DNA of 64,000 nucleotides from a virus (taxonomy: Duplodnaviria > Caudoviricetes), in IMG/VR virus record IMGVR_UViG_3300021185_003947; one strand, 5' to 3'. Below the pieces are notes generated by a model. That model searched no databases, was not told the DNA's origin, and saw only the letters and a list, made by a program, of their open reading frames with translations. The stretch's first letter is position 1, and every line of letters starts with the position of its first letter. Position numbers and translations under genes: made by a program. Of the stretch, positions 2,322-28,288 are shown one piece after another.

Positions 2322-4555
2322 TTTTTGCCTACACTTTCTTTATACGATTTAAGGCTATTAATAGGAATCCCTAACATATTTTTTATACCAAGTGCTCCTC
2401 GAGTAGCTTCAATTATAGATTTTCCTTCAGCTATAAATTCAGCTTGTTTTTCTCTATCTAACACAACATTTACAACTTCATCTGTAATTAATTCTTTTGG
2501 TTTTACTATATCACCTTCTTTTAACATATCATTATTAAGAAGTTGTACAATTTCATCATATCCATGAGCTAAAATAGGTATAGCTCCAGGTAATGGTGCT
2601 GCAGTTTTTACTTGCTCTTTATCTGGTACAGGAGGAATTATAGCTGGAGCTGGAGAGGGCGTAACAAATGGAGCATTATTTTCTGTAATAGCATCAGATA
2701 ACATAACTTGCTCTGCAACTAATGCATCTTGGTCTACATTTTCTAATTCCGGATCTGTTTGATTAGTAGTTTTAAATCTATTTTTTAAATATCCTCCAAC
2801 ATCAAATCCAGGATCTTGAGCCCAATGTTCAATATCATTATGTCCAAAAACACTACATCCCGGCCATATTGCATAATACGATTTTACTATTATATCAAGA
2901 GTTTTCATTTGAGCTGTCGTTAAAGATTCTTTACCATATTTCCAATATTCTTTCTTTTCAGTTGAATAAGAATTCAATCCACCTATAAAGACTACACCAA
3001 TACTATATTTGTCATGATTATCAGTATGACGACCTTCAATATAAACTGGTCTGCCTCTTTCTATTTGTCCATTTTTCTTTACAACGTAATGATAACCAAT
3101 GCCATCTTGATTCAGCGTTATAGCTCTTTCATGTACTTCTTCAGCACCTGCATGAGATTGATCTAAAAAATGTTCACTCCAATGCAATACGAGTTCTGTA
3201 ATTTCTCTTTTAACACTATTAAATTCTGCAACTAATTCTTCAGGTGAATTAACTCGAGTAAATGCGTACTCACCTGGATTTTTAACTTTTCTTTTACTTT
3301 CAGAAATTACCGTTTGTGCACCTGACCAATTAGATGCAGCTTGACCTATTTCAATTCTTTCAGATGCAAGAGGAGGACTATCTGCATCATCTGGCACAAT
3401 ATTGGTAGAAAGATCTGTTGTAAGACTATTAACCTTTTTTTCAATATCAGTAGTAAGTTTACCTATTTGATTTTCAATAATAGCTCGAGCCTGTCCGGCT
3501 GGTATACCTGGTATTGTTATTTTACCCGTGTCTGGATCTAAGTATGGAACAATCTCTGCACCAAATGTTGTTATTTTACCCGTGTCTGGATCTAAGTATG
3601 GAACAATTTTTCCTAATTTAGCGCTTTGTAATATTGCGGCCGAATTAATGTCATTAATTACTGATGTAAATTTTTCATTTTTTAAATTTTTTACGGCTTG
3701 TAAAGTTTGATCAACATCTAAAACCGCGCCGGCAAGATCTTTTATTCCTCTTGTTAAATGATCATCTGCCGATAATTTAGCATTTTGAATTAATCCTAAT
3801 GCGTTGTTAATTTCAGCATCAACATTTGTTACGGTATTTAAAATATTATCTACATCTTTAATTGATATATCTAAATCTACATTCAATGCGTTTTGTAAAC
3901 CACCTAAGCCATTAGTTAATTTTTTTAGCTGATTAGGAAGAGCAGTTATATTGTTTAATGCACCAGTTAGATTTGTTTCAAGAGCATTAGCAGCAGACTC
4001 TAATGCAGCAACTTTTGCTAAACCATCTTTTGCAAAATCTGATAATTCTGCTGGAACAATTCCTTTCATAATTTTATTAAAATCAGGAAGTTCGCCTGTA
4101 ACTTTATTAATAGCCGATTGAATTGATTGTGGTGTTCCAACTAGTTTATTAGCTTTTTTTATTCCAGATCTAAGTGTTGCAACTGCAGTTTTTGGTGTAA
4201 ACACTTCTCCAGTATCAGGATTTGTCCATGGTCGAGCACTCATTTGTTGAACAATTTCTTCTTCTGCAGTAGTTAAAGCCTTATTCATTTTATCTTCAAG
4301 CCCTGGCATTTCATTAGTTAAAGTTGCAATAGGTGCTACCGCTACTAAATTTGCTATGCTTTCTTTTGCTACTGGCAAAGATTCAGTAAGTGATTTAATA
4401 CCATTGATAGAATTACCAACTTTATTTAAAGCTAATTTAGTTTCATTTAAAGCTTTTACTTGATTACTAACTTTATCTATTTTAGAAGTCAAGTTTTGGA
4501 AGTCTAATGTACCTCGTACATTATTTAATTTATCGTTTAATCCTCTAATATCCAT
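2318..4555 (-). CDS. Virion-associated N-acetylmuramoyl-L-alanine amidase (T7-lysozyme/Amidase_2-like) with long helical N-terminus
   Basis: ELVLHWS...GIGYHYVVKKNGQIERGRP...SIGVVFIGG...VFGHND...DPGFDV amidase motifs; lies between the gp5 pieces. Confidence 0.8.
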   Translation of the reverse strand: MDIRGLNDKLNNVRGTLDFQNLTSKIDKVSNQVKALNETKLALNKVGNSINGIKSLTESLPVAKESIANLVAVAPIATLTNEMPGLEDKMNKALTTAEEEIVQQMSARPWTNPDTGEVFTPKTAVATLRSGIKKANKLVGTPQSIQSAINKVTGELPDFNKIMKGIVPAELSDFAKDGLAKVAALESAANALETNLTGALNNITALPNQLKKLTNGLGGLQNALNVDLDISIKDVDNILNTVTNVDAEINNALGLIQNAKLSADDHLTRGIKDLAGAVLDVDQTLQAVKNLKNEKFTSVINDINSAAILQSAKLGKIVPYLDPDTGKITTFGAEIVPYLDPDTGKITIPGIPAGQARAIIENQIGKLTTDIEKKVNSLTTDLSTNIVPDDADSPPLASERIEIGQAASNWSGAQTVISESKRKVKNPGEYAFTRVNSPEELVAEFNSVKREITELVLHWSEHFLDQSHAGAEEVHERAITLNQDGIGYHYVVKKNGQIERGRPVYIEGRHTDNHDKYSIGVVFIGGLNSYSTEKKEYWKYGKESLTTAQMKTLDIIVKSYYAIWPGCSVFGHNDIEHWAQDPGFDVGGYLKNRFKTTNQTDPELENVDQDALVAEQVMLSDAITENNAPFVTPSPAPAIIPPVPDKEQVKTAAPLPGAIPILAHGYDEIVQLLNNDMLKEGDIVKPKELITDEVVNVVLDREKQAEFIAEGKSIIEATRGALGIKNMLGIPINSLKSYKESVGKK
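3514..3607. repeat. 40-bp exact direct repeat, 54-bp period (IVPYLDPDTGKIT x2)
   Basis: ttgttattttacccgtgtctggatctaagtatggaacaat at 3514-3553 and 3568-3607. Confidence 0.9.
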
Positions 4556-25223: not shown

Positions 25224-25991
25224 CTACTCTTTCATATTTTTTATATTCTCTATGTAGCAATCCATACTATGATCACTAAAATTATCTATCTTTAATTTCA
25301 TGACACCAGCAGCCATGCCTTTTAGTCTATCCCACAATCTTTTAAAACCAGATATTTTTACTATTTGACCTTCTGAATTCATATAATGTTCTGTTCCATG
25401 ATGTCTATAACCCATCATTACTAAAGGTACACGAGTAACAACGTCGTTATTATTTACGAATCTATGATGGATTACGCCAAGTGAATTACAATATTTTTTA
25501 AAGCCTACACGAGGAGAACCAAACGTATACAATTCAACCGGATCGTTTAAAAATAAATTATGTAGACATCTTGAGGCCATAATAGTTGCCATGCCTGCTC
25601 CGAGTGAATGACCAGTAAACCAAAGAGTCTTGCCATTATTCTGTTTTCTAGTTAAATCTTCGCATATTGCAGGCCACAATTCATCAACTTCTGATTTAAA
25701 TCCTTTATGAACTCTAGATACTGTTTCTGCCATTACCGGAATCGATTTTAAGTCTGCTTTAATGTCATTGAATTCATTTGGTTGAGTTCCTCGACAAGCT
25801 ATAATACAATCATACTTATTCATAAATCTATATGCCTGTGCGCCATTGACATCATAAAATTCAATTGTATTGAATTCAAGTCTACGCGCAGCGCCCGTAG
25901 CTTCTTTAAGGTCAGAGTACGCAATTGCTGATAGTCGAGCAAACAAGAGGCTTCTGGCTTTAAAACTTAATTGATTTATTGGTCGTGCCAT
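25224..25991 (-). CDS. Class 3 lipase (alpha/beta hydrolase)
   Basis: IACRGT...VHKGF...FTGHSLGAG...TFGSPRVG...NDVVTRVP...DH; late promoter TATAAATA at 26025-26032. Confidence 0.88.
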   Translation of the reverse strand: MARPINQLSFKARSLLFARLSAIAYSDLKEATGAARRLEFNTIEFYDVNGAQAYRFMNKYDCIIACRGTQPNEFNDIKADLKSIPVMAETVSRVHKGFKSEVDELWPAICEDLTRKQNNGKTLWFTGHSLGAGMATIMASRCLHNLFLNDPVELYTFGSPRVGFKKYCNSLGVIHHRFVNNNDVVTRVPLVMMGYRHHGTEHYMNSEGQIVKISGFKRLWDRLKGMAAGVMKLKIDNFSDHSMDCYIENIKNMKE

Positions 25992-26035
25992 AATAGTAAT
26001 ACCTTGTATTCTTTTAGATAATACTATTTATATGT

Positions 26036-26261: not shown

Positions 26262-26371
26262 TGGCTCCAAGGGCAGGATTCGAACCTGCACGAATATAAA
26301 TATTCTTTTGCTAAGACTATATATTCACAACATAAACAGTGCTGCGTGTCTACCTATTCCACCACCTTGGA
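26262..26371 (-). tRNA. Atypical 110-nt tRNA-Asn(GUU)-like RNA with 38-nt variable arm
   Basis: TCCAAGG/CCTTGGA acceptor, G73, encoded CCA, stem CAGCA/TGTTG with loop CT-GTT-TA, T arm GCAGG-TTCGAAT-CCTGC. Confidence 0.85.
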
Positions 26372-26377
26372 TTATTC

Positions 26378-27202
26378 TTACTTTTTAAGAGTATCGATCG
26401 CGCTTATCATGCGTGTCATACCAATTCCACCACCAACTCTTGGAAAGAAATCAAATTCAAGAAACTTTTCAAGTTCTGTTTCAACACGATCTTTACCAAA
26501 TAATTGGTTAATAAGACCAGCATATTCTCCATTTGAAATAGTATGAAATGTATCTCGCATTTGGTCTTTATCAGTACTGCGTTCTGCACTACCAATTGTT
26601 TCCATACCACCAAGGATAACATCAATCTTCTTACTTGTACCATCTTCATTTCTTGACATATTCCAAAATGGACTTGTAAATTCAGGAAATTCTGTAATCA
26701 TAGAACTACCAAAACTAGCTTCCATTGCTAACTCGTGCTGAGCATCTAATTCTGTAGTAGAACTTAGACCGTAATGTTGTTGCCATTCACGATATGTTTT
26801 TTCTGTTGGAATATCAAATCCTAAGTGATTACATAATTGATATTCCATAGTCTTAAGATCATCGATGTCTCCTGGCATTTCAAATTCAAACATCGGAAAA
26901 ATCGTATCATGTCTTCCAGGAATTGCATTTGGTTCTTGTCTATACGAAGTCGAGACACAAAAAAACCCCTTCGAAGAGGGGCGAGTTAATAATTCATATT
27001 CCAACCACATCTGGCCAGTTTGAGGAAGAGGCCATATTTGCCCTTCATAATTATATGTTGCTACATTTTCTGGATCTTCACATGCAGCTAAAATGCTTAA
27101 TCGGTTTTGTGTATGTACTTCTTCAAAGCCTCTATTCAAAAAAAATGACCTTAAAAGGTCAACTGCTTTTGTAAATTTTTTTGGTTCAATCAATTGCGTC
27201 AC
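26378..27202 (-). CDS. Class II (Asp/Asn/Lys-type) aminoacyl-tRNA-synthetase catalytic core without anticodon-binding domain (archaeal-type asparagine synthetase/EpmA-like)
   Basis: Motif 1 FFLNRGFEEVHT, motif 2 SYRQE...RHDTIFPMFEFE, GMETIGSAER, motif 3 GGGIGMTRM; only 274 aa. Confidence 0.85.
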   Translation of the reverse strand: MTQLIEPKKFTKAVDLLRSFFLNRGFEEVHTQNRLSILAACEDPENVATYNYEGQIWPLPQTGQMWLEYELLTRPSSKGFFCVSTSYRQEPNAIPGRHDTIFPMFEFEMPGDIDDLKTMEYQLCNHLGFDIPTEKTYREWQQHYGLSSTTELDAQHELAMEASFGSSMITEFPEFTSPFWNMSRNEDGTSKKIDVILGGMETIGSAERSTDKDQMRDTFHTISNGEYAGLINQLFGKDRVETELEKFLEFDFFPRVGGGIGMTRMISAIDTLKK

Positions 27203-27411
27203 TATCTTATCCTTTTCTTATATTTGCCACATTGGGAATATTTATACAAATAATTTCCATTAATATCATTATTAGCTGAATTATATAAAGCCCAACGAAA
27301 ACAATTCCAAATATTATATGAAGTGTGATAGTACCAAGGGAAAGGAAATTCGTGTCTCCTTTCCCTTAATTGTTTATACCAAGCAATAAATAATTTTATT
27401 CTTCTATTCAA
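27202..27411 (-). CDS. Hypothetical protein
   Basis: ORF track, coupled overlap. Confidence 0.45.
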   Translation of the reverse strand: MNRRIKLFIAWYKQLRERRHEFPFPWYYHTSYNIWNCFRWALYNSANNDINGNYLYKYSQCGKYKKRIR

Positions 27412-28202: not shown

Positions 28203-28288
28203 TGGTGCTCTCACCCGGACTTGAACCGGGACGGCCTATGGCCAACAGATTTTAAGTCTGGCGTGTCTACCTATTCCACCATGAGAGC
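28203..28288 (-). tRNA. tRNA-Leu(UAA)
   Basis: GCTCTCA...TGAGAGC-A-CCA, loop CT-TAA-AA, long variable arm. Confidence 0.95.

Follow-up and report, generated by a model that had tools for sequence, protein, structure and literature searches.

What does a phage gain from a tRNA gene that joins an asparagine anticodon to a leucine-type body? The question is raised by a 64,000-nucleotide (nt) stretch of viral DNA (Duplodnaviria; Caudoviricetes; IMG/VR record IMGVR_UViG_3300021185_003947), analyzed here at its full length and called the window, which carries on its minus strand a tRNA-like gene with the anticodon GUU. A tRNA-Asn normally belongs to class I, and tRNAs reading codons that start with A carry a modified purine at position 37. 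The family of this gene breaks both rules, the class I body as well as the modified purine 37, yet hundreds of contigs from ocean phages, cultured Prochlorococcus phages among them, keep it strictly conserved. The tRNA probably serves a special purpose other than routine decoding. Our favored explanation, to which we give a probability of roughly 0.3, is a functional non-canonical tRNA that serves as a dedicated carrier of aspartate or asparagine (Asx), or as a partner RNA, for the enzyme encoded next to it, a catalytic core derived from asparaginyl-tRNA synthetase (AsnRS). The parts of the tRNA gene are as follows:

26262-26371, minus strand: the whole tRNA-like gene, 107 nt up to G73 (26265) plus an encoded CCA (26264-26262), 110 nt in total
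26333-26339, minus strand: anticodon loop CUGUUUA, with the anticodon GUU at 26337-26335 and U37 at 26334
26290-26327, minus strand: variable region of 38 nt, with a basal stem of 7 base pairs (bp), an inner stem and the apical loop AGCAA
26345-26364, minus strand: Leu-type D-arm block, with the same letters as 28262-28281 in the tRNA-Leu(UAA) gene

The Rfam model RF00005 matches the gene end to end (26265-26371, minus strand; model positions 1-71) with 44.7 bits against a gathering score of 29, and the alignment contains one large insertion, located in the variable region. A covariance model built for the family itself (R1) gives the window gene 94.8 bits. ARAGORN called five other tRNAs in the window, neither this gene nor any other tRNA-Asn among them. 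The tRNA identity assigned in an earlier reading of the letters alone (the sequence-only reading) is backed by the covariance match. The minimum-free-energy fold, calculated without constraints, is a cloverleaf with a long hairpin (-30.2 kcal/mol, z = -2.1). The 7-bp acceptor stem, UCCAAGG/CCUUGGA, pairs U1 with A72 and is followed by G73 and the encoded CCA. The D stem has 3 bp and a loop of 11 nt, the anticodon stem is CAGCA/UGUUG, and the T arm, GCAGG-UUCGAAU-CCUGC, has a stem of 5 bp (GCAGG/CCUGC). In the variable region, a 7-bp GAAUAUA/UAUAUUC stem carries an inner UCUU/AAGA stem; the arm becomes a helix of ~14 bp if one G-A mismatch and a UU bulge are allowed. The window contains exactly two copies of the 20-nt D-arm block, one in this gene and one in tRNA-Leu(UAA); by chance, not a single copy would be expected.

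A D stem of 3 bp and a base-paired variable arm exceeding 10 nt give the tRNA a class II shape, the core being Leu-type and the arm long. It possesses the GUU and G73 of the E. coli AsnRS identity set and the U1-A72 pair, as bacterial tRNA-Asn does, but deviates from a class I tRNA-Asn in its long arm, its Leu-type D arm and a U at position 37 in place of the purine (N6-threonylcarbamoyladenosine, t6A). It is not a bacterial tRNA-Leu either, which has A73 and an NAG or NAA anticodon: with G73 and GUU, only the D arm and the core are Leu-like. The 12-13-bp acceptor/T branch of allo-tRNAs and tRNA-Sec (8/4, 9/3, 8/5 or 9/4) is replaced by a normal 7/5 arrangement. The sequence-only reading had described the Leu-type D arm, the Asn anticodon, U37 and the extra-long arm, and the sequence, the RF00005 alignment and the fold bear this architecture out, with a core that is Leu-type as well and an acceptor end of Asn type. 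The same is true for the details it gave: the D arm matches that of the phage's own tRNA-Leu(UAA) exactly over 20 nt, in two copies, the GAATATA/TATATTC and inner TCTT/AAGA stems of the 38-nt arm appear in the fold, and the stems are intact and the CCA end encoded.

Compared with its nearest models, the tRNA takes something from both. With the phage's own tRNA-Leu(UAA), the identity covers a D-arm block of 21 nt. Bacterial tRNA-Leu has the same 3-bp D stem, A14-A15, placement of G18G19, U before the T stem and long variable arm, but it carries A73, G1-C72 and an arm of 3-5 bp instead of G73, U1-A72, GUU and an arm of ~14 bp. Canonical bacterial tRNA-Asn, the normal form of which is also present as a phage copy (locus L131), shares GUU, U33, G73, U1-A72 and C32...A38, and its acceptor in E. 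coli starts with UCC and ends with GGAG, as here. It is, however, a class I tRNA following the A37 (t6A) rule, whereas the window family has a class II body, a long arm and mostly U or C at position 37.

To place the gene among its relatives, IMG/VR was scanned for relatives of the adjoining core gene, which were found in at least 588 viral stretches; the best 80 loci and the cultured Prochlorococcus phages gave a set of 83 viral loci. At least 77 genes of the tRNA family are present in marine T4-like phages, including P-SSM2, P-SSM5 and P-SSM7. In the 47 distinct sequences of the family covariance model, 17 of the 24 predicted pairs keep their pairing through changes on both sides. No stem is without such compensatory changes, and co-variation across the family extends to the basal pairs of the variable arm, so that a pseudogene is excluded: judged by these comparisons, the gene is real, conserved and selected. 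Unconstrained drift of the stems, by which the sequence-only reading would have recognized decay, is not what the 47 relatives display, and its argument against simple decay holds.

U1-A72, G73, U33 and G34-U35-U36 are invariant in 77/77 members. U33-G34-U35-U36, G73 and U1-A72, which we take to be the bacterial Asn identity set, are thus kept without exception, and the usual tRNA core (U8, A14, G18G19, canonical T loop) is kept too. Of 58 distinct sequences, 50 have a pyrimidine at position 37 (U in 46, C in 4) and the other 8 an A. As the Leu-type D arm, present family-wide, is common to all 77 members together with GUU, U1-A72 and G73, the architecture is old and belongs to the whole family. 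The word chimeric, used by the sequence-only reading, does not fit as an event in this phage, because P-SSM2, P-SSM5 and P-SSM7 are among these members.

The members are 82-108 nt long, the window gene being near the long extreme, and their variable arms have 3-14 bp, from an ordinary class II arm of 3-5 bp up to helices of 10-14 bp. The long-armed members repeatedly show a loop whose last letters are GCAA, with UAUUUA in the 3' strand. The distal part of the 38-nt arm appears to extend an ordinary class II arm in a lineage-specific manner. A repeated mobile hairpin was considered as the origin of the long arm and rejected, since the GCAA...UAUUUA motif is not above chance in the window. Some of the relatives are misread by ARAGORN as tRNA-Glu(ctc).

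The constant neighbor of the tRNA lies directly upstream, on the same strand:

26378-27202, minus strand: gene for an AsnRS-like catalytic core of class IIb (Pfam tRNA-synt_2), 274 amino acids (aa)
26372-26377, minus strand: spacer of 6 nt, from the core gene's stop codon to position 1 of the tRNA, read from the sequence
27239-27246, minus strand: TATAAATA, possible T4-type late promoter of the two-gene unit, from a consensus match

The sequence-only reading had overlooked this neighbor, although it provides the decisive context. The 6-nt distance in the window is typical of the family. The tRNA follows the core gene directly in 77 of the 83 viral loci, and one further locus is cut by the end of its contig; the spacer is 4-11 nt in 73 of these 77 (median 7). 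Of the open reading frames (ORFs) flanking the pair in the window, none has homologues in more than 8/83 loci, against 83/83 for the core gene and 78/83 for the tRNA (the cut locus included). The tRNA and the core gene are inherited together while the other neighbors change. In the enzyme tree, the loci with the tRNA fall into a single marine clade of 68 rows, with a support of 96, in which arms of both kinds, short and long, as well as U, A and C at position 37, are interspersed among near-identical enzymes; neither the distal arm nor position 37 is therefore tuned to the enzyme, and a co-evolution of arm length with the enzyme is ruled out. A split anticodon-binding domain encoded by an upstream ORF was ruled out too, as the upstream ORFs are not conserved.

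P-SSM2, P-SSM5 and P-SSM7 carry the same gene pair. The short forms of the tRNA are already known: in GenBank, those of P-SSM5 and P-SSM7 are annotated as tRNA-Asn (the P-SSM2 copy is unlisted), next to a "tRNA ligase" (T4-GC 194), and they belong to the same family as the window gene. They share with it the CUGUUUA loop, U1-A72, G73 and the 3-bp D stem, and they follow a homologous core gene (66-70% aa identity) by ~8-9 nt. With 85-86 nt, a 5-bp arm and no encoded CCA, they are shorter than the window gene with its 107 nt plus CCA and its variable region of 38 nt. The "tRNA ligase" gene is merely listed, in one table (PMC3037559). In the literature, nothing was found on the tRNA architecture, U37, the linkage to the core gene or the function of the enzyme.

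The core protein belongs to the Asp/Asn/Lys-type class II synthetases (Pfam tRNA-synt_2, E = 6e-14). In the family the core has ~270 aa, and the 274-aa protein of the window starts at motif 1, with no N-terminal OB-fold anticodon-binding domain. Its AlphaFold2 model has a predicted local distance difference test (pLDDT) score of 96. The best Foldseek matches are the AsnRS of Thermus, Brugia, Pyrococcus and human, followed by archaeal aspartyl-tRNA synthetase (AspRS), with template modeling (TM) scores of 0.74-0.80 and 16-19% identity. The family profile gives E-values of 2e-13 for AsnRS, 1e-10 for archaeal AspRS, 7e-6 for EpmA and 1e-4 for archaeal asparagine synthetase A (3P8T). The protein stays below the cut-offs of the NCBIfam models for asnS (TIGR00457; 18.7 bits, cut-off 342.6) and for asparagine synthetase A (15.2 bits, cut-off 389), and its family forms a PHROG of its own, annotated as of unknown function. 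The segments that line the pocket compare as follows in the alignment with the E. coli enzymes:

Pocket motif after motif 1: TGQMWLE in the phage family, SGQLNGE in AsnRS, SPQLFKQ in AspRS
Motif 2 strand: FPMFEFE in the phage family, FWMLEPE in AsnRS, FTQIDVE in AspRS
Before motif 3: GSAER in the phage family, GGSQRE in AsnRS, AspRS not aligned (the alignment stops at residue 283)

The Asp-specific lysine (Lys198 of AspRS) is replaced by a near-invariant Leu in the phage family, and E106 and R208, presumably the Glu/Arg pair with which AsnRS binds asparagine, are kept. By these residues the pocket is AsnRS-like, not AspRS-like. The class IIb core with intact motifs 1-3 is shared with the catalytic domain of AsnRS and with AS-AR, EpmA and HisZ, of which the last three also have no anticodon-binding domain. 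The enzyme is at most 16-19% identical to any solved structure and, in profile, much closer to AsnRS than to AS-AR or EpmA. The phage and the cellular clades have ~110 positions in common that are at least 90% identical in both, all pocket and motif residues among them, which indicates that the phage enzyme almost certainly has the same activity as its cellular orthologues.

The genes around these orthologues point to the pyrimidine pathway. On other contigs, one representative is a fusion of DHO_dh with the core, and another is a fusion of the core with OMPdecase, situated beside phosphoribosyltransferase and DHO_dh genes. The core gene adjoins pyrD and a pyrE-pyrF fusion on the complete chromosome of Aureispira anguillae and in assemblies of Chitinophagales, Saprospiraceae and Myxococcota; in a Weeksellaceae assembly, its neighbors are housekeeping genes instead, such as those for phosphoenolpyruvate carboxykinase and gldB. 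Adjacent or fused loci, in bacteria and on other contigs, are L147:8793-10897, L110:760-2846, L142:6793-8778 and L146:544-2310. Aspartate carbamoyltransferase (PyrB) was detected in 0/5 cellular carriers of the enzyme versus 14/14 control genomes. No match at all to dihydroorotase was obtained in two of the five carriers, and the asnS model matched in all five, four times above its cut-off. Among 301 Chitinophagales genomes, 10 have the enzyme and 257 have PyrB. PyrB is missing in 10/10 enzyme-positive versus 34/291 enzyme-negative genomes (Fisher p = 2e-9, a value that is overstated because the genomes are related).

From this context, we infer that the core enzyme is metabolic, substituting for the early, feedback-regulated steps of pyrimidine synthesis, and not a private synthetase. 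The first steps of the pyrimidine pathway may be replaced by this non-homologous family, a candidate for that role. Dihydroorotate is formally an asparagine with a carbonyl bridging both nitrogens and would suit an Asn-type pocket. To our knowledge, linkage to pyrD, pyrE and pyrF together with the absence of PyrB has not been reported for the AsnRS, AS-AR, EpmA or HisZ families. At 45% identity, the gene on L128 is the core's most distant relative; the 97-kb contig that carries it comes from a bacterial assembly, and an ordinary class I tRNA-Asn (3021-3093, plus strand) stands 250 nt downstream of the gene. The huge phages LR756501 and LR756508 possess the enzyme, with only a normal tRNA-Leu or tRNA-Asn and no class II GUU tRNA. 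LR756501 also has, in a tRNA cluster, a 91-nt tRNA to which ARAGORN assigns a four-base anticodon, ttac (L095:1694-1784, minus strand).

Two further observations concern tRNAs that stand beside, or resemble, the family. The 133-kb viral contig G005 carries a canonical 76-nt class I tRNA-Asn with A37 in a tRNA cluster (L131:1763-1838, minus strand) and, behind the core gene, a long-armed U37 tRNA(GUU) (L063:3351-3447), a coexistence that argues against a routine decoder. Class II-shaped tRNA-like genes with the anticodon GUC, U37, U1-A72, G73 and inserts of 45-140 nt are found on Chitinophagales and Aureispira chromosomes (L149:21-138, plus strand; L150:22-154, minus strand; L175, L179, L180 and L182-L185). 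Their pattern occurs in 98 of the 301 Chitinophagales genomes, while the reversed pattern used as a control gave one match, and they often stand in tandem arrays of two to six. A canonical tRNA-Asp accompanies them in both genomes where one was found (G017, G199). Like the window family, they combine U1-A72 and G73 with a Leu-type D arm, the same T arm, U37 (in their case in a YUGUCUC loop) and a very long insert, and their UGU...ACAG acceptor type is that of the P-SSM phage tRNAs. They differ in the GUC anticodon, the tandem arrays, the chromosomal location and the missing association with the enzyme. No description of class II GUC genes was found in the literature.

The favored reading would connect these elements in the following way. 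The host enzymes that read GUU and G73 would charge the tRNA, either AsnRS directly or a non-discriminating AspRS followed by GatCAB, for which U1-A72 is the element needed. U37 and the odd body would keep the tRNA largely out of routine decoding, and its aminoacyl end would be handed to, or the tRNA sensed by, the core enzyme. This enzyme, blind to the anticodon, may be a pyrimidine-precursor enzyme that binds an Asn-like substrate. Since it has no anticodon-binding domain and GUU is nevertheless invariant, the anticodon must have another reader: the ribosome, the host AsnRS or the host AspRS. A more specific version, which we regard as quite unlikely in this full form, makes the tRNA the amino-acid-carrying arm of a tRNA-linked pyrimidine route, with a core enzyme that takes the Asn, or is gated, to yield dihydroorotate. 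Host enzymes would load Asp or Asn onto a decoding-poor tRNA(GUU), the core enzyme would take the place that it presumably has in bacteria in replacing the aspartate carbamoyltransferase step, and, in hosts whose Asn is made solely on tRNA, the phage would get around the feedback-controlled entry to the pyrimidine pathway.

Several observations weigh against an Asx carrier working with this enzyme. The chemistry of the enzyme is a guess from genomic context, and dihydroorotate keeps a free carboxylate, so that an ester with tRNA is not chemically required. The cellular orthologues do without an adjacent special tRNA. In the comparison of clades, the phage enzymes have no extra basic patch relative to the cellular ones, and a tRNA-binding patch specific to the phage clade was rejected as there is no gain of basic residues. 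Next to near-identical enzymes, the arm may have 3 bp or 10-14 bp, its distal part offering no fitted handle, and 8 of the 58 distinct family sequences have the normal A37. The Leu-type D loop might hinder GatCAB, as is reportedly suggested by work on the enzyme of Staphylococcus aureus. Finally, the GUC genes are not associated with the enzyme (5/10 enzyme-positive versus 93/291 enzyme-negative Chitinophagales genomes, p = 0.3). They were therefore rejected as its cellular partners, and this tRNA architecture can have a role independent of the enzyme. It is because of these unassociated cousins and the lack of a tRNA-binding feature in the phage clade that the carrier reading is held at no more than the value given above.

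An alternative, albeit an unlikely one, is that tRNA and enzyme form a private pair, the core being a minimal AsnRS that charges this tRNA through its acceptor end and class II body so that it decodes AAY codons for the phage. The tight adjacency and co-inheritance, the AsnRS-like pocket with intact class II motifs, and the encoded CCA, G73 and U1-A72 would all be expected of such a pair. An enzyme without an anticodon-binding domain would need another handle, and the class I tRNA-Asn 250 nt downstream of the distant relative L128 fits as well. However, the same enzyme is found in bacteria that have a canonical AsnRS and no adjacent special tRNA, where it tracks the absence of PyrB and the pyrD/pyrE/pyrF neighborhood, and huge phages have it without a class II GUU tRNA. 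Moreover, the arm length is unmatched to the enzyme, and U or C37 would be a poor design for reading codons starting with A, in the tRNAs for which t6A37 is nearly universal. The last point also bears on a host-charged tRNA-Asn that simply decodes, its altered loop and body evading tRNA nucleases of the host or of competitors, and its link to the enzyme reflecting a shared cassette or Asn economy. This is rather unlikely in our view. The gene shares its anticodon, G73 and U1-A72 with bacterial tRNA-Asn and has a canonical T loop, G18G19, U8 and A14; ARAGORN calls no other tRNA-Asn in the window, and the short forms bear the annotation tRNA-Asn in GenBank. Altered anticodon loops that make a tRNA resistant to anticodon nucleases are known from phages. 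Yet the contig G005 has a canonical tRNA-Asn in addition, the frequency of a pyrimidine at position 37 (50/58) is unlike that of decoding tRNAs, the related GUC genes of Chitinophagales are likewise extra to a canonical tRNA-Asp, and the linkage at 4-11 nt across many contexts is left unexplained.

The position of the tRNA also allows for a function in cis. Near-identical DNA is present in public runs of 12 studies, mostly marine metagenomes (assembled contigs). Contigs from four RNA libraries cover the region, and two of them span the 3' end of the core gene through the whole tRNA, DNA carry-over being possible; no joint across the arm is seen in these assembled contigs, with the same reservation. 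These contigs, and the location 6 nt past the stop codon on the same strand, would suit an element of the enzyme mRNA, in which a cut by RNase P or RNase Z defines and stabilizes the 3' end, or in which the RNA acts as a feedback sensor of Asn-tRNA charging. Synthetase genes regulated by tRNA mimics have a precedent in E. coli thrS. We nevertheless find such an element improbable: a processing signal needs no invariant GUU, G73, U1-A72 or encoded CCA, the cellular orthologues do without it, and the RNA-library contigs may be DNA carry-over. The long arm and the invariant G73 evoke, in turn, a serine acceptor, charged by the host seryl-tRNA synthetase (SerRS) and inserting Ser at Asn codons or carrying Ser elsewhere, as bacterial SerRS reads the extended variable arm together with G73, ignores the anticodon and charges allo-tRNAs in this way (PMC7609411). 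U1-A72 is unlike tRNA-Ser, the strict GUU would be unexplained, and Asn-to-Ser errors throughout the proteome would be costly. The Leu-type D arm and core do not fit either, and in E. coli a Leu-type core sets a different orientation of the arm; altogether, the serine acceptor is highly improbable. The missing ARAGORN call and the AT-rich arm could point to decay, the gene being a duplicated tRNA-Leu or tRNA-Asn into which junk was inserted; this has next to no likelihood left, refuted as it is by the compensatory changes in every stem, the invariant core nucleotides and the hundreds of relatives.

The Asx carrier would have company among tRNAs of special purpose. The staphylococcal non-proteinogenic tRNA-Gly, tRNA-Sec and the allo-tRNAs (for the latter two, PMC7609411) are oddly built extra tRNAs that exist beside canonical isoacceptors and serve a dedicated pathway, and we know of no better functional analogue. 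The window tRNA is unlike them in its normal 7/5 acceptor/T arrangement, its canonical T loop and its sense anticodon, so that the likeness does not imply membership. If the tRNA and the enzyme cooperate, a new metabolic use of a tRNA would be added to that of Glu-tRNA in heme synthesis, along with a new route of nucleotide supply in phages. Should the pyrimidine route be true, the family would form, with the GUC cousins of the Bacteroidota, a class of non-decoding class II Asx tRNAs. A private charging pair, on the other hand, would be a natural minimal pair of tRNA and anticodon-blind aminoacyl-tRNA synthetase, of interest for genetic-code engineering.

The octamer TATAAATA is present inside the variable arm, on the plus strand (26295-26302), as the sequence-only reading had noticed, but its suggestion of an antisense late promoter does not stand. 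With 15 copies in the window, where 14.4 are expected, the octamer is not enriched, and at this chance frequency the copy in the arm gives no signal. In most relatives the arm does not contain it, UAUUUA on the RNA strand being all that is kept; an antisense late promoter in the arm was rejected on both grounds. Another copy (27239-27246, minus strand) is located 36 nt upstream of the start of the core gene, on the coding strand, and could perhaps, as a weak candidate, be the late promoter of the two-gene unit.

On the other side of the cassette, 3' of the tRNA, lies a class 3 lipase gene (25224-25991, minus strand) with a TATAAATA copy of its own (26025-26032, minus strand). The gene is found there in the window, P-SSM2 and P-SSM5, and no more than 8 of the 83 loci share it. 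On two viral contigs, ARAGORN called a tmRNA with the tag AVNEDFALAA ~1.6 kb upstream of the core gene (L031:493-875 and L032:492-874). On two viral contigs as well, a tRNA-Ser was called with the anticodon ACU, i.e., with A34 (L131:1207-1297 and L140:143-232, both minus strand), which is unusual for tRNA sets of the bacterial type.

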